NCBI GenBank assembly: GCA_963803805.1
Contig: CAWDOD010000011.1
Coordinates: forward strand, 192,001 to 256,000
Length of the DNA stretch: 64,000 nucleotides
Direction of reading: 5' to 3'
From: an uncultured cyanobacterium
GTDB lineage: Bacteria > Cyanobacteriota > Cyanobacteriia > Cyanobacteriales > CAWCAG01
Below, one piece after another: positions 2,223 through 63,762 of the stretch. The notes under the pieces are model-generated. The model did not search any database, was not told the DNA's origin, and saw only the letters and a program-made list of their open reading frames with translations. Made by a program: the position numbers and the translations under genes. Each line of letters opens with the position of its first letter. Position 1 is the stretch's first letter.

Positions 2223-3560
2223 CTAATAAACATCATTGGTGGGATCAACAGCAGGATGTTCCAAGGGCATAACCAGAATTTTATCAACTCGATTACCATC
2301 CATGTCCATCACCTCTAAACGCAAATTTTCCCACTCAAAATGATCTGCGGCGGTAGGAATTCTGCCCAGGTGGGTGATCACAAATCCACCCAAAGTATGA
2401 TAATTACCTCTTTCTTCTCCTGGTAAGATTTTCAACTTAAATAAATCTCGAAAATCCTCAATGGGTAAAATGCCATCAACTAACCAAGAACCATCTTCCC
2501 TACGGGTAGCTTGAGGATTATCCTGTTCATCAACAGAAGGAATATCGCCAACAATGGCTTCCATGATGTCGTTAAGGGTTACTAAACCTTGGATCACTCC
2601 ATATTCATCAACCACCAAGGTAATATGGGTTCCTGTTTGCTTAAATAACTCCAAGACCTTTAATCCCCGCGTTGTTTCCGGGACAAAGAGGGGGGGGCGT
2701 AGGGAAGAAGTCAGATCAAAAGGTTGCCCAGCTAAACAGTTGGCAAGCAGGTTAGTTACTTGAACAACACCCAAAACATTATCTAGGCTGCCTTGACAAA
2801 CGGCAAAGCGGGTATGAATGCTATTAATAATTTTATGGCGATTAGTTTCAGAAGAGTCTTCTAGATCTAGCCAAACAATTTCCGGTCTAGGGGTCATCAA
2901 GGTATTAATTTCTCGATCTCCCAATTGCAAGACTCCTTCCACCATATCTTGTTCTGCTTCTTCAAACATACCCGCTTCAGTACCCTGTTTGAGCATTACT
3001 TTGATTTCTTCTTCAGTAATTAAAGGTTCTGAGTAAACTGTAGCTGTACCAAGAAGTTGCAGTACTAAATCTGTAGATAAACCTAATAAATGGACTATGG
3101 GAGCAGATAATTTCGCTAGATTACTTAATGGTAACGCTACACGCCTGGCAATACGTTCTGGTTCATTGAGGGCAAGACGTTTAGGAACTAATTCCCCAAT
3201 CACTAAAGAAAGATAGGTAATACACAAAACTACTATAACTAGAGCGATCGCTTCACTCTGTGGCTTCAGAAGCGGAAAACCTGCCAAAAAATCAGCTAGG
3301 CTTTCGGCGAGGGTAGCACCGCCCAAGGCTCCTGCAAAGATACCTATTAAGGTAATGCCAATCTGAACAGTAGAAAGGATTTGATTAGGATTGTTAGCCA
3401 GTTTTAAGGCTGCTTTAGCCTTGTAGTCTCCTTGGGAACTAAGTTGTTCTAAACGAATTTTACGGGAGGAGACAATAGCAATCTCTGACATAGCAAAAAT
3501 GCCGTTGGCTAAGATCAACAAAAGCAGTAAAAGAATATCGCTAGTGACGGAGAACATCAA
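2223..3560 (-). CDS. Hemolysin/CorC-HlyC family protein (CNNM/DUF21 + CBS pair + transporter-associated domain)
   Basis: NGIFAMSEIAIVSSR, GELVPKRLA, MTPR, VVDEYG and HTLGGF motifs. Confidence 0.92.
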   Translation of the reverse strand: MMFSVTSDILLLLLLILANGIFAMSEIAIVSSRKIRLEQLSSQGDYKAKAALKLANNPNQILSTVQIGITLIGIFAGALGGATLAESLADFLAGFPLLKPQSEAIALVIVVLCITYLSLVIGELVPKRLALNEPERIARRVALPLSNLAKLSAPIVHLLGLSTDLVLQLLGTATVYSEPLITEEEIKVMLKQGTEAGMFEEAEQDMVEGVLQLGDREINTLMTPRPEIVWLDLEDSSETNRHKIINSIHTRFAVCQGSLDNVLGVVQVTNLLANCLAGQPFDLTSSLRPPLFVPETTRGLKVLELFKQTGTHITLVVDEYGVIQGLVTLNDIMEAIVGDIPSVDEQDNPQATRREDGSWLVDGILPIEDFRDLFKLKILPGEERGNYHTLGGFVITHLGRIPTAADHFEWENLRLEVMDMDGNRVDKILVMPLEHPAVDPTNDVY

Positions 3561-52874: not shown

Positions 52875-55358
52875 CTATTTTGGCCAAGTAAAACGAAAAA
52901 TTGTCCCTTCCCCCAATTGAGACTCAACTTTGATAGTTCCTCCTTGGGCTTCAACTGTTTTTTTGACAATCGATAAACCAATACCAGTATTTTCAGTTTT
53001 ATCCCTTGCTTCTAAGGTTTGGAAAATGACAAACACTTTGTCATGGTATTGTGGAGCGATACCAGAACCATCATCTTCTACTACAAACTCATAAAATTTC
53101 CCTTGGTTTGTCACAGAAATTTGCACTTTGCCATCATCACGAGGATGATGTTTAATGGCATTGCCAATTAAATTAGTGAATACCTGTTGTAAAGGTAAAC
53201 GCTTCGTTTGTAAAATCGGCATTTCTGAGGCAATGGTAATTTGAAAATTAGGTGGTGGTGCAAGAAAATCAATGATCTCTTCAAGAAGTTCACCGACAGC
53301 AACTTCTTCACTTTGAACTCGGATACGTCCGACACGAGAGTATTGTAGCAGTCCGTTAATCAGGGCTTCCATACGATGAACTCGTCCTCGTAGCAAATCC
53401 ATCTGATGCTTCGTATCCTCAGTTAGACAAGCTTCTAAATCTTCTTCAATCCACTCAGATAAATTAGCGATCGCCCGTAAAGGTGCTTTCAAATCATGGG
53501 AGGTAACGTAGGCAAATTGGTCTAATTCTTGGTTGCGTTTTTCTAGTTGAGCGGTGGTAGTGAGTAAAATAGCATTAATTCGTGCTAGTTCATCAGCCCT
53601 AGCTTGTAGGATAGCTTCATGTTGCTGACGTTCGGTAACATCATTAAGGGTTCCCGATGTACCTAAAACTTCTCCTTCAGTATTATGATAAAGTTGAGCT
53701 TCTATTTCTAACCAACGGAATTGGCCAGTTTTAGTTTGACAACGAAATGTATGTTGAAACAATTCTTGTTTTTTTGCCATCAAAGCTTGGAAAAGTTTCC
53801 AGCATTTCTGTTGATCTTCCTCTCCATAAATGTAGTTAGTGAAGGGAGTACCAAGACTGTTGGCGATAGAGAAATCAGTAATTTCCCTCCAAGCTTTATT
53901 TAAGAAAGTCCAACAACCTTCTTGATTAGTTTGGAAAATAACTTCTTTAACACTATTAACCACAGAACGATGTTTTTGTTCACTAGCCGCTAAGGCAGCT
54001 TCGGCTCGTTTGCGTCGGGTAATATCATCAAAGGCAACCCCCACACATTGATCCGGCAAAGGAAAGGCTTTGATGCTAAAGATGTTCTTGTTTCCTAGCT
54101 CATGATTATAAGCAAAACTTTCTAAAACCTTAGCTTGCCCAGAACGAATTACCTCAACATAAGTATCAATAATAATTCTATTTTCTGCCCTCAAAAGTTT
54201 GGGAAAACAATCCTTCATCATTTGACCCATTTTATCTTGAAGAGATACTCCAAGTAGTTTACTCGCAGCAGGGTTAGTTGTTACTGATTGAAAGCTATGA
54301 GGATCATCGAGATCCTTTAAGCGCCAAACCACAAAGCCGATGGGTATATTTTCAACTATATCTTGATAAATTTTATTTTCTGCTTGGGCTTGTTGGGCAA
54401 TGTTGACAGATTCATCTTTTAGGCGGTTAGCTACTTCTAGCTGAGATGTCCTTCTAGTAACCCTTGCTTCTAACTCTCGATTAAGGCGAACAATTTCTGC
54501 TTCTGCTTCCTTGCGTTCAGTAATATCTTGATGGGAACCTACCATACGCATAGGCTTACCTGTTTGATCCCACTTTGCCTTTCCTTTAGCTAAAATCCAT
54601 TTGTAACTGCCATCTTTACAGCGTAAGCGATATTCTGCTAGGTACTGAGAATTCTGGTTATGGAGATGGGCTTCTAGCTTTTCTGATACTTGGTTAAAAT
54701 CATCAGGGTGAACTAAATCGTGCCATCCTTCATAGGTATTAGGAATTTCTTCGTCGCGGTAGCCAAGTACTCCTTTTAAATTAGGAGACATAAAAGCTTC
54801 ACCAGTAACAATATTCCAATCAAAAATTCCGTCTCCTGCCCCTTCTAGCGCCAATTGCCAGCGTTCCTCACTTTTCCTCAAAGCTTCTTCTGCTTTAACT
54901 ATGGGTTCTAGGGTTCCAGCCCATTCGGTTACAGCCCCTCTTTCCCCCCTCAAAGGTTCAGCACAGGCAAGAAACTGTTCATAAATACCCTCTCTATTCC
55001 GCAAGCGAAGCTGGACTTTGTAGGTGCTTTGAGAGGGCAGTGCAGCCTGCCATTTTTGTTGCACTCCCTCTCTATCGTCTGGATGAATTGCTTGAAAAAA
55101 CTGTTCTTTTGGTACAGTAGTTGTTGTTGGGTAGATATACTCTTGCCATTTTTGATTTAAAAAAGTTATCTCTCCTGCTTGATCAGCACACCAAATTAGG
55201 TGCGGTAGTGCATCTAAAAAACGTCTGTTTTGGAAAAAATGCTCACTTTGGTGGTTGGATAAGTTGCTCATGGTGAAGTGTGGTTTTTGGTTATCCCTTA
55301 GACGACAGGCAGCATTATGGTTTATAAATGGGGTAAAAGTGCGTAGATAAAATACCAA
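52875..55358 (-). CDS. Multi-PAS sensor histidine kinase (start may be ATG 55271)
   Basis: Four PAS-like domains (IHPDD, VHPDD), H-box SHDLKAPL, N-box NLIGNAIK, DDGSGI and GIGLS. Confidence 0.93.
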   Translation of the reverse strand: MVFYLRTFTPFINHNAACRLRDNQKPHFTMSNLSNHQSEHFFQNRRFLDALPHLIWCADQAGEITFLNQKWQEYIYPTTTTVPKEQFFQAIHPDDREGVQQKWQAALPSQSTYKVQLRLRNREGIYEQFLACAEPLRGERGAVTEWAGTLEPIVKAEEALRKSEERWQLALEGAGDGIFDWNIVTGEAFMSPNLKGVLGYRDEEIPNTYEGWHDLVHPDDFNQVSEKLEAHLHNQNSQYLAEYRLRCKDGSYKWILAKGKAKWDQTGKPMRMVGSHQDITERKEAEAEIVRLNRELEARVTRRTSQLEVANRLKDESVNIAQQAQAENKIYQDIVENIPIGFVVWRLKDLDDPHSFQSVTTNPAASKLLGVSLQDKMGQMMKDCFPKLLRAENRIIIDTYVEVIRSGQAKVLESFAYNHELGNKNIFSIKAFPLPDQCVGVAFDDITRRKRAEAALAASEQKHRSVVNSVKEVIFQTNQEGCWTFLNKAWREITDFSIANSLGTPFTNYIYGEEDQQKCWKLFQALMAKKQELFQHTFRCQTKTGQFRWLEIEAQLYHNTEGEVLGTSGTLNDVTERQQHEAILQARADELARINAILLTTTAQLEKRNQELDQFAYVTSHDLKAPLRAIANLSEWIEEDLEACLTEDTKHQMDLLRGRVHRMEALINGLLQYSRVGRIRVQSEEVAVGELLEEIIDFLAPPPNFQITIASEMPILQTKRLPLQQVFTNLIGNAIKHHPRDDGKVQISVTNQGKFYEFVVEDDGSGIAPQYHDKVFVIFQTLEARDKTENTGIGLSIVKKTVEAQGGTIKVESQLGEGTIFRFTWPK

Positions 55359-55476
55359 TGGCTATTAATATTTCTTAGCCAATGACCAATTCAGGTGGTA
55401 TATTATTGCGGCGCAACTCTCAAGGCAGATTACTAGATTTCTGTTAGAGAAAATTTAATTTTATACTGAATTAATA

Positions 55477-56199
55477 ATGAGTAAGATTCGCGTCGTTGTA
55501 ATTGAAGATCATAACCTGAGTCGAGTTGGTTTATGTGCAGCCCTACGACAAGATGAAGGTATTGAGGTGGTAGGTGATGCAGCCAATGCTAGCCAAGGAT
55601 TACAAGTTTTAGAAGCTACCCAGCCAGATGTGGCAATTATTGATATTGGCTTGCCAGATCGTGATGGTATTGAGCTAACGCAGCAACTGAAGCAAGCCCA
55701 AGGAGGTTTGAAAGAAGCTAAAACCAAGGTTTTGATCTTAACAATGCACAAGAATGAAGACTCTGTTTTAGCCGCTTTTGCTGCTGGGGCAGATTCTTAT
55801 AGTATTAAAGATATTAGTGTAGAAAATTTAATTCAGGCGATCAAGTTAACTAACGAAGGAAATTCTTGGATAGATCCTACCATAGCCCGTGTGGTTCTTA
55901 AACAAGCACGTCATAACAAGCCTGGTGCAAACGTTATAGTCAATGGTGAAGATTCCCAAAGAATTAAGGCTATTGAGCCAGAATATGAGCAAGTTTTAGA
56001 GACATACCCTTTGACTAATCGGGAATTAGAAATTTTGGAGCTAATAGTAGCAGGATGTAGCAATGCTCAAATTGCTGAGAAGCTATTTATCACCGTGGGT
56101 ACAGTTAAAACCCATGTTCGTAATATTTTGAGTAAGCTTTGTGCTGATGATCGTACTCAAGCTGCGGTAAGGGCATTACGTTCCGGGCTAGTTAGATAA
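55477..56199 (+). CDS. NarL/LuxR-family response regulator
   Basis: Receiver domain (IEDH, DIGLP) and LTNRELEIL...TVKTHV HTH. Confidence 0.94.
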   Translation: MSKIRVVVIEDHNLSRVGLCAALRQDEGIEVVGDAANASQGLQVLEATQPDVAIIDIGLPDRDGIELTQQLKQAQGGLKEAKTKVLILTMHKNEDSVLAAFAAGADSYSIKDISVENLIQAIKLTNEGNSWIDPTIARVVLKQARHNKPGANVIVNGEDSQRIKAIEPEYEQVLETYPLTNRELEILELIVAGCSNAQIAEKLFITVGTVKTHVRNILSKLCADDRTQAAVRALRSGLVR

Positions 56200-57476: not shown

Positions 57477-58979
57477 TTACCCTTCTAAATCCCCTTCCAT
57501 AACAGTTGCGATCGCAGTTTTAGTATTAGCTTTAAACTCAGCTACATCCACTCGATTGAGGAGATAAATAGCCACAAGCATACCTAAAGCTTGGATCGCA
57601 AATACCAAACCATAGGCAAGCACAGGGTTTTTAAAAACTTGCTTACCAATATCTAAAACCACACCACCCAAAGAAGTAGCTAACCCCCTAGACATAGCTT
57701 GTGCCAAACCCCAAGCCCCGATAAAAGTACCAGCACTTTCTACCGCTGTTAAATCTAACATCAAACTAATACTGCCAATGGTGGCAATCCCGGCGGCTAT
57801 ACCAAACAAAAACACCGCACTTTTGAGAATATTTTCCTCTTGGGTAAAGCCAGCCAAAATAATTAAGCAAAAACAAATAGCAATCAGCAAACAACCAATT
57901 TTGGCAGTTAATTTTTTTCCTAAACGTGGCACGACTAAAAAACCAGTTGTACCATAACCCAACAAAATTCCTAGTCCCCAAAAAGCATTTAACTGAGTTG
58001 TTTCAGCGATAGACATACCAAAAACCTCACCGCCATAGGGTTCTAAAACCACTTCTTGCATAAATAAGCTAATGGTAAAAACTAGTAGGAAGGAAAAGAA
58101 AATTCCTGTTTGACGACTGGCAGTTAAAATTTTCAGGGATTTTCTGAGGGTCATACTATCTTCTCTTTCTGTAAAGGAAGAACGAACAGAGAAACGAGAA
58201 TATTTTTTTTCTACTCCTAAAGTAGCTATCAATGCTAGGGCGAAAACAACAATCGGGACAATAAGAAAAAGTTTGTTGAGGGGATTTTGCAAAACCTCTA
58301 GGGGAGTATCAATCATCTTTTCCCCCACTAACAAGCTACTACCAACATTAGCCCCTAAAACAATGCCAGATTGTTGAACTTTTTTTAAAAGAATGCCACC
58401 ACTGATGCCACCAATGACGATACCAACCATCAACATTGACCAAACTACAGAAACAATTTTCGAGCGGTTATCTTCTTCAGAAATATCTACCAACATGGCG
58501 GTAAAAGGGGTTGAACTAGAACTTAGTGCCAAACCAAAACAGACAAAAAGCAAAGCTAGCAAACCTGTCCACCCCATAGTGGCAGTATTCCAAACCCAAC
58601 CACCATTAGCACGGACTAAACTACCAAGTTGCCACACTACTTGTACTGCGAAAAACACAGCTAAGCCTAATAAAGCGGTTCCCAAGCGTACATAATTGGT
58701 ACGATGTCTACCAAACAACTTCTTAGAATCTGATAGCTGTCCAAACCAAACCCTAGCTGGAGAGACAAATTGCTGCATAGCCACCACTACACCAGTTATG
58801 GTAGCAGGAATACCCAACTCACTAATCATCACCCGGTTAAGAATTGCTAGGGTTAGCACTGACATTAATCCCAGCCCTAGGTTAAACAAACCAAGGCGAA
58901 ACATCGTAATTAAGTCAACTCTCGGAATTTTCCTAGAGTCGAAGTTTGTTTGTAGATTAGGAATATCGCCAGTAGTCAT
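57477..58979 (-). CDS. pucC: PucC/BCD-family MFS protein
   Basis: RLGLF, LNRVMISEL, RVWFGQLSD, LEPYGG and GAWGLAQA motifs. Confidence 0.88.
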   Translation of the reverse strand: MTTGDIPNLQTNFDSRKIPRVDLITMFRLGLFNLGLGLMSVLTLAILNRVMISELGIPATITGVVVAMQQFVSPARVWFGQLSDSKKLFGRHRTNYVRLGTALLGLAVFFAVQVVWQLGSLVRANGGWVWNTATMGWTGLLALLFVCFGLALSSSSTPFTAMLVDISEEDNRSKIVSVVWSMLMVGIVIGGISGGILLKKVQQSGIVLGANVGSSLLVGEKMIDTPLEVLQNPLNKLFLIVPIVVFALALIATLGVEKKYSRFSVRSSFTEREDSMTLRKSLKILTASRQTGIFFSFLLVFTISLFMQEVVLEPYGGEVFGMSIAETTQLNAFWGLGILLGYGTTGFLVVPRLGKKLTAKIGCLLIAICFCLIILAGFTQEENILKSAVFLFGIAAGIATIGSISLMLDLTAVESAGTFIGAWGLAQAMSRGLATSLGGVVLDIGKQVFKNPVLAYGLVFAIQALGMLVAIYLLNRVDVAEFKANTKTAIATVMEGDLEG

Positions 58980-59193: not shown

Positions 59194-60690
59194 TCACAAT
59201 GCCAAAGACATCAGACTTGCCACCATCTCCTTATCTGCTAACTCGCGTATCTCATCATTAACCAAAGGATAAAGTAAATCGTATACTTCCGGGTGAGCAT
59301 TTTTTGCTGCCAACAATAAAGGTGTTTCTCCCACACTCCAAGCATTTACATTTGCCCCAAACTCTAACAAAATTTGCACAACTTCTTTGTAACCTTGGTT
59401 AGAAGCAGACATCAAAGCTGTCCAACAATCTTCTTCATAAGCATCAACTTCTGCCCCAGCTTCAAGCAGAATGCGTACAACCTCTTCATGTCCGCCGTTT
59501 GCAGCCTCATGTAAAGGCAGACAGTCAAAACCATTGTTAACATTAGCCCCCGCAGCAACTAACTCACAAACTATTTCTAGCAAGCCTTGTTTTGCAGCAA
59601 AAACTAAAGGTGGTGTCTCGTACCAAACTGAAGCTTGAACTTTCGCCCCTAACCTAAGCAGTGTTTGCACAGCATTTAGGTTTTCACTCATCACCGCAGC
59701 GATAAGCGGTGTGACGTTTTCAGGAGTTTCAGCAAAATATTCTGGTGAGTCGAAACTATCTTCTGTTTCTCTACCTTCTTGCCTTTGCAAATACTCATCT
59801 AACATCACCGCCACAGCAGATAAATCTGAGAAAATATTTTGGGGATTGCCGTGGTGAGGTTGTAGTTGAGTGATGTAGTTGTGATGATGTTCTAATAAAG
59901 TATTGGTAGGACAGCAGGGATGAGAATAACGCCAGAGTCGAGAAAATTCCCTTTCTGCTTCTAATTCTGTGGTGGTAGTAGTCAGAAAAGTCTCATCAGT
60001 AAAGCAAGTCACAAAATCTACTCCCCCGAAGCATTTATCCATTTTCATTACCACCCCACAAACAGACTCATCAGGGGAACCATAGCCATAGCTAATTACA
60101 TCCCGAAAATGAGAAAAGGTCAATTTCCCTAAAAGTTGAAACCCTAAACTTTGCAACTCTTTATTAATTTCCTGAATTGGCTCTATTTCTTGGTGGCAAA
60201 TGGTTTCAAGATCCCTGCCATAATAAGTTCCATGTTCTCCGGTGAAGAGAATTTTCTTTTTACTAGGAGTTGTTGCCACCGGAGCAATTTCAATCTCTCT
60301 ATGCTCCTCATTTTTTGGGGAACCTTTTCCTAAAAGCGCTTTGATAAACTTAGTAAAGCTAGCATAAAAATTGCTTGTCTCTGGCTCAACATTCTTTATT
60401 GCTTCAGTGATAAATTCCTCTAAGTCATCATCTTCTAGTGTCTCAAACAAACAATCTTCAGAATCAAAATCAACAAGTTGAGAAGCTAAATTTACCTGCG
60501 CCCCCGCAGCTACTAATAACTCAATTATGGCCACATTACCTTGACTAGCTGCCAACACTAAAGCAGTTTGTCCCTTTTCATCTATGCTGTTAGCAGGAAC
60601 TTTTAACTCCTCAAGGATATATTTCACTTGTGCGATATTAACTGAGTGGATCGCCTCAAATAAACTTTGAACTTGGGGGTCTATGGCCAT
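59194..60690 (-). CDS. Ankyrin-repeat protein with a central non-ankyrin domain
   Basis: GQTALVLAA at the N-terminus and five C-terminal repeats (TPLIAA, PPLVFAA, LPLHEAA, TALMSAS, TPLLLAA); ATG at 60690 follows GAGGA. Confidence 0.85.
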   Translation of the reverse strand: MAIDPQVQSLFEAIHSVNIAQVKYILEELKVPANSIDEKGQTALVLAASQGNVAIIELLVAAGAQVNLASQLVDFDSEDCLFETLEDDDLEEFITEAIKNVEPETSNFYASFTKFIKALLGKGSPKNEEHREIEIAPVATTPSKKKILFTGEHGTYYGRDLETICHQEIEPIQEINKELQSLGFQLLGKLTFSHFRDVISYGYGSPDESVCGVVMKMDKCFGGVDFVTCFTDETFLTTTTTELEAEREFSRLWRYSHPCCPTNTLLEHHHNYITQLQPHHGNPQNIFSDLSAVAVMLDEYLQRQEGRETEDSFDSPEYFAETPENVTPLIAAVMSENLNAVQTLLRLGAKVQASVWYETPPLVFAAKQGLLEIVCELVAAGANVNNGFDCLPLHEAANGGHEEVVRILLEAGAEVDAYEEDCWTALMSASNQGYKEVVQILLEFGANVNAWSVGETPLLLAAKNAHPEVYDLLYPLVNDEIRELADKEMVASLMSLAL

Positions 60691-60793
60691 AATTCCTCGC
60701 TCCCTTTTATAAGATTGAGCATACCCCAATTCTTGACAAGAGTTTCTAATAAAGATGCTTAACAGTTAGAAATTTAGCAGTTTTTAGGTTGGG

Positions 60794-60825
60794 GCGATCG
60801 CAAAGCGTCTCCGTAAGAGAATTGC
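60794..60825 (+). mobile_element. Second 24-nt SDR5-like element, in a degenerate HIP1
   Basis: GCG-ATCGCAAAGCGTCTCCGTAAGAGA-ATTGC; 18/24 identical to the dnaA insert. Confidence 0.65.
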
Positions 60826-60839
60826 CTTTTCTCAATTGA

Positions 60840-61064
60840 CTAAAATTTATTTTGATTGAGCCATTGTAGCAAAATAAACAATAACCGAATCAATGCGATC
60901 GCAATTGTCGCTTCTGGATTTAGCCAGCTTATCAGGGTGATTGTCGTGATGGCGATCGCTTTTAAGAGAGAGGGATTGATTTTAGGTTTCTTTGGTGGTT
61001 GAGGTTTGGTAACACAAGGAACAACAATTATGATTTTGGTTTCGGGTTGCTTGACAGGTTTCAT
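60840..61064 (-). CDS. Small basic Pro-rich protein with hydrophobic C-terminal helices
   Basis: 74-aa ATG ORF, divergent from the Roco gene and upstream of the ankyrin gene. Confidence 0.5.
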   Translation of the reverse strand: MKPVKQPETKIIIVVPCVTKPQPPKKPKINPSLLKAIAITTITLISWLNPEATIAIALIRLLFILLQWLNQNKF

Positions 61065-61365
61065 GAGTTTGCTTGGTTTGCATTTGATTAATTACAAACC
61101 TACAAACTTTGAAATTGAGGCGAAAGAGCTAGTAAATGCGAGTAGATAAAAGCATTTTCACGCATTGTTTTGCAGAGGCTTATTTATTAGTGACTCGGCT
61201 AAAATTGTCTGTTAGGGCGGGTTTATTTGGTTTAATGTTAATCTCAGGATTAGACTCGCGCCCCTGCTGTTGGAAGATTTTATGCCTGTCATGCCGCTAT
61301 AAATACTCGCGCACTTATACGCATTGTTTCGTTAAATTAGAGAAAGTTTTAGTGGCTACCTACCC

Positions 61366-63762
61366 ATGAGTGGAAATAAAAGACGAGGCGGTTATCTGGC
61401 GACGGCAGAAGGAGTAAAAAAACTTAAAGAAGCAAAGGGTATTAAGAAATATAGTTATCAACAAATTGCAGAGGAAGCGAGGGAGACAGAAGATAAAGTT
61501 AAACGCTTGTTTAATCCTCAATGGGGCGATGGTAAATATAAAGTTGGTGAAGAAGCTGTAGAAGCTATTTGCAATGTATTAGATTTAAAGCCAGAAGAAG
61601 TTGTTAGTGATTGGTATTCATTGGCTCTTATTCAAGAGAAAGAAAAGTTAGTTACCTCGACTCAAATCAAAAATCACGATCCTTCTTATTATCAGGCACT
61701 TAGAAAAATCAGACAAGCTGTTATAGATGAAGTAAAAAGACTAGATCTTTCTATAATGGAATTAACAGAATTACCATCAGAAATTGGACAATTGTCTAAT
61801 CTGACAGAACTTTACCTCAACAATAATTTCCTGAGCAGTCTGCCCCCAGAAATCGGACAACTGGCTAATCTTACAGTACTCTACCTCGGTTCTAATTCCC
61901 TAAGTAATCTGCCCCCAGAAATCGGACAACTAGCTAATCTTAGTAAACTTTACCTCAACTATAATTCCCTAAGCAACCTGCCTCCACAAATCGGACAACT
62001 AGCTAATCTTACAGGGCTTTACCTCAACTATAATTCCCTAAGTAATCTGCCCCCAGAAATCGGACAACTAGCTAATCTGACAGGACTTTACCTCGGTTCT
62101 AATTCCCTAAGTAACCTGCCTCCAGAAATCGGACAACTAGCTAACCTGGCAGTACTCTACCTCAGTTCTAATTCCCTAAACAGTCTGCCTCTAGAAATCG
62201 GACAACTAGATAATCTTAGTACACTTTACCTCGACAATAATTCCCTAAGCAATTTACCCCCAGAAATTATAGCAAAGCAAAACGAACCAGCTATCATAAT
62301 TGATTACTATTTATCTCTGCAACAAAGTAAGCAACAAAAACCGCTCCACGAAGCAAAAATGTTACTGGTTGGGCAGGGAAATGTAGGAAAAACTTGTCTT
62401 AGAGAAAGGTTAATTAGAAATAAATACGATCCGACTCGTAATAAAACTGATGGTATTGATATCGAACCTTGGGAAATAGAAGTAGACGATAAACAATTAC
62501 AAGTAAATATTTGGGACTTCGGTGGACAAGAAATTATGCACTCTACCCACCAATTTTTCTTAACTAAACGCAGTCTTTATATCTTAGTAGTTGATACGAC
62601 TATAGGAGAAGAAGAAAATCGCATTGAATATTGGCTTAAAATAATTAAAAGTTTTGGTAAAAACTCCCCGGTAATTATTGTCGGTAACAAAGCAGATCAA
62701 CATCCTTTAGATATTGATAAAACTGGTTTAAAGAAAAAGTATCCCCAAATTTTAGATTTTAAAGAAATCTCCTGTGAAACAGGAATGGGTATTTCCGATT
62801 TAGCTCAATTTGTCAAGCAGGAAATTAATCAATTAGAACATATTGACGATTTGTTACCTTTGCCTTGGTTTAACATCAAAGAAAAGCTAGAAGAACTTGA
62901 TAAAGACTATATTCCCTACGAACAATATGAGTCTTTGTGTGAACAAGAAGGAATTGAAAAAGAAACTAAACAACGCATCTTAATTGGGCTGTTAAACGAT
63001 TTAGGTGTTGTCCTCAATTTTCAAGATGACCCTAGGTTAGAAGATACCCACGTACTTAACCCTGAATGGGTAACAAATGGAGTTTATAAAATACTCAACG
63101 ATCGTAATTTAATTGTTGATAATCGCGGCATTTTAACCATTCCTACTCTACAAAGAATCCTCAATCAACCTCGCTACCCAGCCAGAAAGCATTTATTTCT
63201 TATTGGCATGATGCGAAAGTTTGAACTTTGTTTTGATATTGAAACAGATCAACAATTTCTCCTGCCTGATATTTTACCCAAAGAAGAACCTTATACAGGA
63301 GAATGGGAAAACACCCTTGCTTTTGAATATCATTACCCCGTTTTACCTGGTAGCATTATCTCTCGCTTTATTATTCGTATGAATCACTATATTCATCAAA
63401 CAACCTATTGGCGTAGTGGGGTAGTTTTAGCAAATGAAGGTAATTTGGCATTAGTTAAAGCAGACAGGGAAGATAAAATCATTAAAATTCGTGTTAGTGG
63501 CAAAGCTAATACGAGACGCAATCTTTTAACAGCAATTCGTTCCCAATTTGACTATATTCACAAAACTATTCCTGGTATTGTGCCAGTAGAAAAAGTCCCT
63601 TTAATGGAACATCCAGAAATCATTTTAGACTATCAAGAATTGTTAGGTTTAGAAGCGATGGGAGAAACAACTGTAGCCATTGGTAAACTTAAACAACGCA
63701 TTCCTTTGAGGCAATTACTCAATGGTATAGAATCTTTAGGCGATCGCCAAGCCCCAAAATAA
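61366..63762 (+). CDS. HTH-LRR-Roc-COR (Roco family) protein
   Basis: N-terminal XRE-like HTH (SYQQIAEEA...VKRLF...ICNVLDL), about 8 LRRs, Roc motifs GQGNVGKT/TDGIDI/WDFGGQ/GNKAD and COR motif LNPEWVTNGVY. Confidence 0.9.
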   Translation: MSGNKRRGGYLATAEGVKKLKEAKGIKKYSYQQIAEEARETEDKVKRLFNPQWGDGKYKVGEEAVEAICNVLDLKPEEVVSDWYSLALIQEKEKLVTSTQIKNHDPSYYQALRKIRQAVIDEVKRLDLSIMELTELPSEIGQLSNLTELYLNNNFLSSLPPEIGQLANLTVLYLGSNSLSNLPPEIGQLANLSKLYLNYNSLSNLPPQIGQLANLTGLYLNYNSLSNLPPEIGQLANLTGLYLGSNSLSNLPPEIGQLANLAVLYLSSNSLNSLPLEIGQLDNLSTLYLDNNSLSNLPPEIIAKQNEPAIIIDYYLSLQQSKQQKPLHEAKMLLVGQGNVGKTCLRERLIRNKYDPTRNKTDGIDIEPWEIEVDDKQLQVNIWDFGGQEIMHSTHQFFLTKRSLYILVVDTTIGEEENRIEYWLKIIKSFGKNSPVIIVGNKADQHPLDIDKTGLKKKYPQILDFKEISCETGMGISDLAQFVKQEINQLEHIDDLLPLPWFNIKEKLEELDKDYIPYEQYESLCEQEGIEKETKQRILIGLLNDLGVVLNFQDDPRLEDTHVLNPEWVTNGVYKILNDRNLIVDNRGILTIPTLQRILNQPRYPARKHLFLIGMMRKFELCFDIETDQQFLLPDILPKEEPYTGEWENTLAFEYHYPVLPGSIISRFIIRMNHYIHQTTYWRSGVVLANEGNLALVKADREDKIIKIRVSGKANTRRNLLTAIRSQFDYIHKTIPGIVPVEKVPLMEHPEIILDYQELLGLEAMGETTVAIGKLKQRIPLRQLLNGIESLGDRQAPK
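61770..62270 (+). repeat. 69-bp intragenic tandem repeats encoding 23-aa LRRs
   Basis: A unit close to CCAGAAATCGGACAACTAGCTAATCT recurs every 69 bp, about 7 times. Confidence 0.92.

Follow-up and report, generated by a model that had tools for sequence, protein, structure and literature searches.

A cyanobacterial HTH-Roco gene and a divergent small membrane protein gene form a mobile two-gene cassette, a candidate ligand-gated transcription switch

Roco proteins have been studied mostly as models for human LRRK2, and little is known of the function of their bacterial members. Bacterial receptors resembling the nucleotide-binding, leucine-rich-repeat (NLR) proteins are thought to act via fused enzymatic effectors. 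Here we describe a locus in a 64,000-nucleotide (nt) stretch of DNA, hereafter the window, from an uncultured cyanobacterium (positions 192,001 to 256,000 of contig CAWDOD010000011.1, assembly GCA_963803805.1), in which the gene for a 798-amino-acid (aa) protein combining a helix-turn-helix (HTH) domain, leucine-rich repeats (LRRs), a Roc GTPase and a COR region stands head-to-head with a gene for a 74-aa protein. The two genes form a mobile two-gene cassette, and we propose, at about an even chance of being right, that this cassette works as a transcription switch gated by a ligand and serves to induce a small membrane effector.

The nearest solved relative is the Roco protein of Chlorobium tepidum (CtRoco; PDB 6hlu, 8r4b-d and 3dpu), which has the same LRR-Roc-COR order and no kinase; residues 290-794 of the 798-aa protein align with it at E values of about 1e-101 to 5e-102, the latter for chain 6hlu. 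As described in PMC11052575, CtRoco alternates between a dimer formed through COR and a monomer with GTP bound. It differs from the protein described here in that no HTH is reported for the solved chains, the match starting at query residue 290. We know of no small membrane partner of CtRoco. Kaur, Burroughs, Iyer and Aravind (2021; text of PMC8195603) placed LRR-AP-GTPase-COR proteins in conflict systems with rapidly evolving N-terminal LRRs, several paralogues per genome and at least 24 alternative C-terminal domains, TIR included. The 798-aa protein shares the LRR, AP-GTPase and COR core of these systems, and its genome likewise holds several diverging paralogues, namely, three COR-A genes with different ends, of which only the one described here carries the HTH. 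In contrast to those systems, in which an effector follows COR, the 798-aa protein has none, and it has an HTH in front. The account of the AP-GTPase systems mentions, in its text, neither an N-terminal HTH nor a linked small membrane gene.

Fusions of an HTH to other nucleotide switches have been described. Among the N-terminal "adaptors" of bacterial NACHT proteins, HTH domains have been listed as ones that could set off a response at the level of transcription (text of Kibby et al., bioRxiv 10.1101/2022.07.19.500537), and an HTH in the effector position of VMAP proteins has been noted (text of PMC7159879). In the NACHT proteins the HTH replaces an enzyme at the N terminus, and the HTH family of the window itself heads NACHT-HEAT, NACHT-NCH2 and NACHT-NCC-H/NCAB1 proteins; in the 798-aa protein, a Ras-like GTPase rather than a STAND ATPase serves as the switch. 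XssQ of Synechocystis, which joins an N-terminal HTH to a STAND module, is a demonstrated transcription activator whose target promoters share an upstream consensus (text of PMC8205485). XssQ and MalT likewise fuse a nucleoside triphosphatase (NTPase) switch to an HTH, but their targets are metabolic regulons rather than one dedicated small membrane gene. The 798-aa Roco has no STAND (AAA+-derived) module; partners of the small gene elsewhere (NACHT, NB-ARC) are STAND proteins. MalT of Escherichia coli has a LuxR-type HTH at its C terminus; once its ligand and ATP have driven it to oligomerize, it binds direct-repeat boxes set in arrays, and these arrays are the closest analogue of the direct-repeat arrays found in the cassettes described below. 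In the text of the literature searched we found no HTH-Roco fusion, no small membrane gene paired with HTH-NTPases and no HTH-specific spacer repeats; figures, source data and supplements, which lay outside that search, may tabulate the pairing.

The gene for the 798-aa protein occupies 61366..63762 on the forward strand, as do all of its domains. The Roc domain (62356..62697; residues 331-444) was matched by Pfam Roc at an E value of 5.5e-32 and 110.9 bits, against a cut-off of 27, and is directly followed by COR-A and COR-B (62857..63726; residues 498-637 and 648-787), matched at E values of 1.6e-41 (142 bits) and 4.8e-33 (114.4 bits), respectively. The protein ends 11 residues past COR-B, with no Pfam domain after it. 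The P-loop, DxxGQ and NKxD motifs of Roc are all present, and G336, G341-K342-T343, D384-xx-G387-Q388 and N441-K442 are invariant in an alignment of 23 homologues. With Ras-like Roc motifs and COR-A and COR-B after Roc, the 798-aa protein is a Roco (AP-GTPase) switch with an LRR sensor. The LRRs span about residues 120-310, where LRR_8 matches five stretches and LRR_4 and LRR_14 also match; the DNA of this sensor region consists of 7.1 tandem copies of a 69-bp unit, at 81% matches (61778..62267; Tandem Repeats Finder). Homologues are about 740 to 980 aa long and vary chiefly in how many LRRs they have, and these differences suggest that repeats are gained and lost via unequal recombination.

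The N-terminal domain (61366..61620; approximately residues 1-85) was assessed by structure prediction. An AlphaFold2 (AF2) model of residues 1-100, built from 24 sequences, has a predicted local distance difference test (pLDDT) score of 74.3 and five helices in the Cro/C1 order (14-27, 31-38, 42-49, 62-71 and 76-79). In a Foldseek search of the PDB, the top rows were all of the Cro/C1 fold (ClgR, SinR, C.BclI, C.AhdI, HigA and the CapH N-domain), at probability 1.0, with root-mean-square deviations of 2.2-2.5 Å over about 63 residues and template-modelling (TM) scores to the target of 0.6-0.71. Relatives of the domain exceed the Pfam cut-off for HTH_26 or HTH_3 (e.g., P0151, P0166 and L091). 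The five-helix, lambda-repressor-like Cro/C1 (XRE) fold of the N terminus, with the HTH at helices 2-3, is established at the level of the model, and such a domain would be expected to bind DNA in a sequence-specific manner, to which the conserved bipartite spacer sites described below point indirectly. A first-pass annotation, made from the letters of the window alone, had described this protein as an XRE-like HTH, about eight LRRs, Roc and COR with nothing after COR; Pfam and the model uphold that layout, with COR split into COR-A and COR-B, and the predicted fold and the domain family bear out the HTH.

This HTH heads many different proteins. A phmmer search of 1.84 billion representatives returned 52 clusters matching the domain at an E value of ≤1e-3; in the 28 of these that were scanned with Pfam for their bodies, the HTH was N-terminal in every case. 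Behind it were NACHT (with NCH2, HEAT, NCC-H or NCAB1 tails), NB-ARC, nSTAND1-WD40, VMAP, HerA/DUF87, AAA_35, TRADD-N/DUF1822 and LRR/Roc fragments. With an HTH profile, matches were obtained in 120 of the 401 genomes that represented the order. The plasmid collection contained the HTH in two Tolypothrix AAA-like proteins only, and a metagenome scan with a single HTH protein as the query returned one locus, L153. The source genome has a second, distant member of the family (G000:C3:644708-644944, reverse strand), with which a 457-aa frame begins; elsewhere, frames of comparable length are HTH plus AAA_35 proteins.

Among the 120 best cluster representatives of the whole protein, 36 carry the HTH, and 6 of these 36 also carry TIR_2 after COR-B (P0012, P0013, P0023, P0025, P0032 and P0081). 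The first-pass annotation had stated that bacterial Roco proteins often bear a C-terminal effector, and the TIR of these sister proteins is an instance of it. Its interpretation is supported in part, and its proposal that the output here would be DNA binding calls for a qualification: the HTH is present and nothing follows COR, but since HTH and TIR occur together in six homologues, the HTH is not simply an output in place of an effector. The presence of the small ORF could be read at one HTH-Roco-TIR locus, L086, which lacks it and in which the promoter block has kept its flanks and lost the CGCAYTG core described below. P0023 appears identical to a gene at G426:C33 that sits at the start of its contig. 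Two further loci without the small ORF, whose C termini are undetermined, group in a TIR-rich clade of the HTH tree (support, 96/90).

The small-protein gene lies at 60840..61064 on the reverse strand. Its pairwise ratios of nonsynonymous to synonymous substitution rates (dN/dS) are 0.12-0.32, at dS values of 0.5 to >2.9 (near saturation), and hence the gene has been under purifying selection. Residues 1-30 form a lysine-rich disordered tail with seven K/R and one D/E. An AF2 model (pLDDT, 69.5) has helices spanning 31-48 and 50-71, the maxima of hydropathy fall at 31-48 and 52-66, and a W-L-N-P-E-A turn joins the two hydrophobic helices. In a profile of 17 sequences (A3), W47, P50, L61 and F63 are invariant; family members range from 56 to 92 aa. 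The membrane hairpin is the sole part conserved across partner classes, and the cytoplasmic tail differs by class and is reduced to about eight residues in the class called type C below. Class II holins, pinholins and type I toxins are small two-helix membrane proteins with a charged cytoplasmic tail. The small protein, with two predicted membrane helices and a charged cytoplasmic end, is holin-like in prediction and resembles these proteins in its size, charged tail and two short hydrophobic helices; it differs from them in that it matches none of them by sequence or family and lacks the context of a lysis gene or antisense RNA, and a search of viral contigs found no relatives. It has no family in Pfam, NCBIfam or PADLOC, and in the ESM Atlas it matches only unnamed cyanobacterial clusters, at scores of ≤0.77.

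The small ORF stands head-to-head with the Roco gene at nine of nine TIR-less HTH-Roco loci with a readable upstream region (in G000, i.e., the window; G027; G159, which is L007; G265:C3; G265:C4, which is L006; G204; G426, which is L005; L008; and L153), in unrelated genomic contexts. A tenth HTH-Roco locus, L166, has only a remnant of it. The first-pass annotation had pointed to a divergent, basic and hydrophobic 74-aa ORF and asked whether it accompanies homologues of the Roco gene; its dN/dS and its conserved pairing at all nine loci make it a real gene. In the order at large, profile A3 matched 40 small-ORF places, which are spread over 30 of 401 genomes and 15 of 142 genera, with up to four copies per genome; in a phylum-wide sample it was present in 14 of 401 genomes, 13 of them from the same order and 1 from elsewhere in the class. 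No relatives were found in viral contigs or in the plasmids searched. At 33 of the 40 places the small ORF faces a divergent NTPase-type gene that starts about 20 to 560 bp away, most often NACHT-NCH2 and otherwise NACHT-HEAT, NB-ARC-TPR, a WD40 protein or Roco. Two places are at contig ends, and five have no such partner, three of these being stop-ridden remnants. One genome (four copies in all) has two copies 3.5 kb apart on a single contig (L145, on G193:C95; 4528-4821 and 8017-8253), one of which is interrupted by a stop and lacks a partner gene.

The partners span four NTPase classes and five N-terminal types, and most of them begin with an HTH-like domain. There are at least five kinds of N terminus, that of the window being type B. 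Types A and B are related (hhalign probability, 88%; E value, 2.8e-6; 70 columns). Pfam matched HTH_3, HTH_26 or HTH_31 weakly in six of eight type-A proteins, Sigma70_r4 or GerE weakly in three of four type-C proteins and HTH_26 in both type-E proteins, in one above the cut-off; it matched an HTH in none of the three type-D proteins. The window's HTH also occurs without the small ORF, which is beside 7 of the 30 best HTH loci. Forms without it include HTH-NACHT proteins with NCC-H/NCAB1 ends (L074, L081, L082, L091 and L092), the HTH-Roco-TIR protein of L086, an nSTAND1-WD40 protein, an NB-ARC-TPR protein and a HerA form.

At four of the nine Roco loci (G027, L008, G265:C3 and G204) the NTPase gene is degraded and the small ORF is intact, an arrangement that fits activation of the small gene better than a toxin held in check by a repressor. 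It also bears on the idea of a negative role for the small protein, which as an anti-activator or tether in the membrane would keep the HTH-NTPase inactive until a membrane signal arrives. The strict head-to-head pairing and a basic tail that varies with the partner class would suit such a role, but intact small ORFs beside degraded NTPase genes, a tail nearly absent in type C and the frequency of same-type HTH-NTPases without any small ORF make it, in our view, decidedly improbable. Various forms of degradation were observed. In the same-genus genome (L078, on G027:C5; 2480-3163) an internal Roco deletion joins the HTH to the last ~118 COR-B residues in a 228-aa frame, the distal spacer site described below is gone, and the small ORF is intact; at L008 (4606-5669), L075 and L076 the NTPase genes are truncated or split, also with the small ORF intact.

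The 301-bp divergent spacer (61065..61365; no strand assigned) holds both promoters. The words that the first-pass annotation had picked out in it are there: the 11-mer ACGCATTGTTT occurs exactly at 61160-61170 and 61319-61329, with no further copy in the window at ≤1 mismatch; ACTCGCGC occurs at 61254-61261 and 61305-61312; and 61136-61143 reads ATGCGAGT, which is ACTCGCAT on the opposite strand. Of 1,000 dinucleotide shuffles, 25 contained an exact direct repeat of ≥11 nt within 301 nt, as did 10 of 212 window tiles. The 11-mer repeat alone is therefore only mildly unusual, and it gains weight because it is conserved in related loci. It belongs to a bipartite direct repeat, GCAYT-N5-GCAYT, of which it makes up the right half. 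The proximal bipartite site (61311..61325, forward strand) starts 55 nt before the Roco ATG, inside a conserved block of about 45 nt (61302-61345). The distal site (61152..61166, forward strand) lies 159 nt upstream of the proximal one, with its CGCAYTG core 98 nt from the ATG of the small ORF. A search of both strands of the window for GYAYT-N5-GCAYT gave two matches, these two, in the same orientation; the notable point is that both fall within one 301-bp spacer.

The positions of the sites recur between loci. The bipartite site starts 51-56 nt before the ATG in six of nine Roco spacers and 79-80 nt before the ATG of two type-B NACHT genes, and is also found a short way upstream of two type-B HTH genes whose bodies are different (L073 and L087); spacers of the other types, 4,940 nt in total, contain none. 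The distance of the CGCAYTG core from the small-ORF ATG is 95-98 nt in the window, L007, L006 and the type-B NACHT-HEAT loci L080 and L085. Whether the spacer repeats recur in homologues had been left as a question by the first-pass annotation, and the word is indeed kept at fixed positions. An alignment of nine type-B spacers shows a further conserved block (61122..61144, reverse strand), 58-80 nt upstream of the small ORF, which holds the inverted word and is likely a promoter element of the small gene. With dS near saturation between loci, the conserved spacer blocks are under constraint. The whole 25-nt proximal block was considered as an operator and dropped; its best match was 13/25, in L080 and L085, and the candidate operator was accordingly narrowed to the GCAYT half-sites. 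At L005 there is an exact duplicate of about 35 nt, with copies 160 nt apart. In the L005/L163 spacer (L005, about 3130-3200), and at this locus only, a CCCACTA unit (GGTAGTG on the other strand) is present in five copies between two bipartite sites.

If the adjacency and the repeats had no functional meaning and had arisen by chance or simply through common descent, an 11-mer repeat of such modest rarity would be understandable, as would the likeness of loci within one type, which are related. However, 33 of 40 small-ORF places facing an NTPase gene, across several classes and N-terminal types, low dN/dS with dS near saturation and sites at fixed positions leave this explanation with a next to negligible probability.

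Each kind of N terminus has its own repeated word in the spacer upstream of the small ORF. Type-C spacers have three copies of AAGTCAG with a 10-nt period, type A2 has four to five copies of AACTCAAATCA, type D has four copies of TCTATTT, and type A has two to five copies of TGRACA with a period of about 11 nt. In types A, A2, C and D the arrays lie directly upstream of the likely core promoter of the small gene. Because these motifs were picked by eye from the loci in which they were counted, and loci of the same type are kin, we also applied a motif-free test, in which the most frequent 7-mer of each spacer was compared with 300 shuffles. It was significant in three of three A2, three of four C, two of three D and one of eight type-A spacers. 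As to arrays of direct-repeat sites of the kind expected for MalT-like activators, the window's spacer has two bipartite sites, and clear arrays occur in types A2, C and D. The type-C loci L133, L137, L139 and L138 also contain a conserved inverted repeat, AAATCC...GGATTT, which ends up downstream of the AAGTCAG array in what is presumably the 5' leader of the small gene, some 25-50 nt ahead of its ATG.

We propose that the NTPase acts as a ligand-gated transcription factor. A ligand, probably derived from an invader, would bind the LRRs and shift the nucleotide and oligomeric state of Roc-COR, with a CtRoco-like cycle of dimer and monomer (PMC11052575) supplying the switch. This change would alter occupancy by the HTH of the bipartite sites at 61152-61166 and 61311-61325, so that the small gene is turned on and the regulator's own gene is tuned. 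Arrays of direct repeats spaced by one turn, as in the other types, would suit several HTH heads gathered by an oligomerizing NTPase, as in MalT. The activator XssQ and the HTH "adaptors" of NACHT proteins offer precedents for such a fused transcription factor. The position of those arrays just upstream of the likely core promoter favors activation over repression. The small protein may then act as a membrane effector, depolarizing or permeabilizing the membrane and leading to arrest or death, and would stand in for the C-terminal TIR of the sister proteins. We infer this effector role from the hairpin being its only conserved part, from the lack of recognized effector domains in the partners and from the absence of the small ORF beside the assessable TIR form.

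It is conceivable instead that the HTH, like many regulators of defence genes, autoregulates the NTPase gene only and that activated Roco triggers the small protein, as a membrane effector or co-factor, by direct contact. The proximal site lies over the Roco promoter, the site is also found before type-B HTH genes that lack a small ORF (L081, L082, L073 and L087), the same HTH coexists with a TIR effector, and the cytoplasmic tail varies between partner classes. On the other hand, only the membrane hairpin is kept across classes, the type-C tail is very short, the NTPases have no membrane segment, the arrays in types A, A2, C and D lie directly upstream of the likely promoter of the small gene, and the distal site has a fixed position relative to the small-ORF ATG in Roco and NACHT loci alike. 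We regard this alternative as somewhat unlikely.

Several observations nevertheless weigh against a ligand-gated switch acting on the small gene. For the HTH itself, the Foldseek search of the PDB gave no match at an E value of ≤0.001 (best, 4.3e-3), and Pfam HTH_31 fell below its cut-off (17.0 bits against 27; E value, 0.0073; residues 27-79). Its role may be autoregulation alone, given the HTH-Roco homologues that carry a TIR as well, and it does not need the small ORF as a partner, since 23 of the 30 best HTH loci lack one. The complementarity between TIR and the small ORF is drawn from a single assessable TIR locus. For the sites, the 11-mer repeat has a P value of about 0.025, and two bipartite sites per 64 kb are within chance (mean, 0.98; 22 of 100 shuffles reach two). 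The exact bipartite site is missing from three of nine Roco spacers and from the NACHT-HEAT loci L080 and L085, which have the small ORF. In the 7-mer test, none of the nine type-B Roco spacers showed an excess arising from the site, the repeated 7-mer of L163 being an unrelated heptamer, and the near-diagonal table of types against words overstates independence, the motifs being eye-picked and the loci kin. The site evidence is weaker for type B, the window's type, than for types A2, C and D. For the effector, a conserved basic residue inside helix 2 and the very short turn make the membrane topology uncertain. Finally, there is no defence-island context among the ORFs of the window around the locus, and a PADLOC search gave no match.

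Downstream of the small gene, a gene for a 511-aa ankyrin protein lies on the same, reverse strand (59194..60729). Pfam places ankyrin repeats at both its N- and C-terminal ends, and a center of about 250 aa has no assigned family; the PADLOC candidate PDC-M72A matches the protein in its ankyrin part only (E value, 1.8e-29). The first-pass annotation had counted this gene among the divergent genes under control of the Roco protein. We rejected it as a member of the unit: it adjoins the cassette in the window and in the same-genus genome only, and the neighbors at other loci are unrelated. The upstream neighbors (52875-56199 and 57477-58979) include a divergent PAS/histidine-kinase gene and a LuxR-type response-regulator gene, as read from translations, and a PucC-family major facilitator superfamily (MFS) transporter identified with Pfam; none of the three has a visible link to the cassette. 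The source genome (G000; 11 contigs, 5.3 Mb, with the window on G000:C11) has Pleurocapsales-type cyanobacteria as its closest named relatives, such as Xenococcus sp. PCC 7305 and metagenome-assembled genomes of Pleurocapsa.

The neighbors in the window, being housekeeping or signalling genes, would agree with a physiological switch unrelated to conflict, in which an NTPase transcription factor comparable to MalT or XssQ senses an endogenous cue and sets the level of a small membrane protein with a part in the physiology of the envelope, the thylakoids or stress. The cyanobacterial HTH-STAND protein XssQ, an activator of polysaccharide genes (text of PMC8205485), provides a precedent; the empty PADLOC search and the absence of small-ORF relatives from the viral contigs searched point the same way. 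Against this stand the patchy distribution of the small gene, with several copies in some genomes, its unrelated genomic contexts, the frequent degradation of the NTPase genes, LRR arrays that expand and contract, the TIR of the sister proteins and the placing of LRR-AP-GTPase-COR proteins in conflict systems (text of PMC8195603). We consider a purely physiological role unlikely.

A ligand-gated switch that turns on a membrane effector would have consequences beyond this locus. More tentatively, and with the balance of probability against it, the cassettes may represent a cyanobacterial family of two-gene immune modules in which an intracellular receptor of the NACHT, NB-ARC or Roco NTPases doubles as a transcription factor gated by its ligand, with the adjacent small pore-forming gene as its sole target; suicide or arrest would then be brought about through transcription rather than by a fused enzyme, and the DNA-binding head and its operator repeats would be swapped as a unit. 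The cassette is a useful object in that its candidate operators are defined and its putative effector is only 74 aa, and the covariation of HTH type and spacer repeat offers a set of natural operator/regulator pairs. If the proposed switch is correct, promoter activity could serve as a readout of a Roco or NACHT switch, the GTP/dimer cycle of Roco proteins would become directly assayable in vivo, and a transcription-coupled effector route would be added to bacterial NLR-type immunity.

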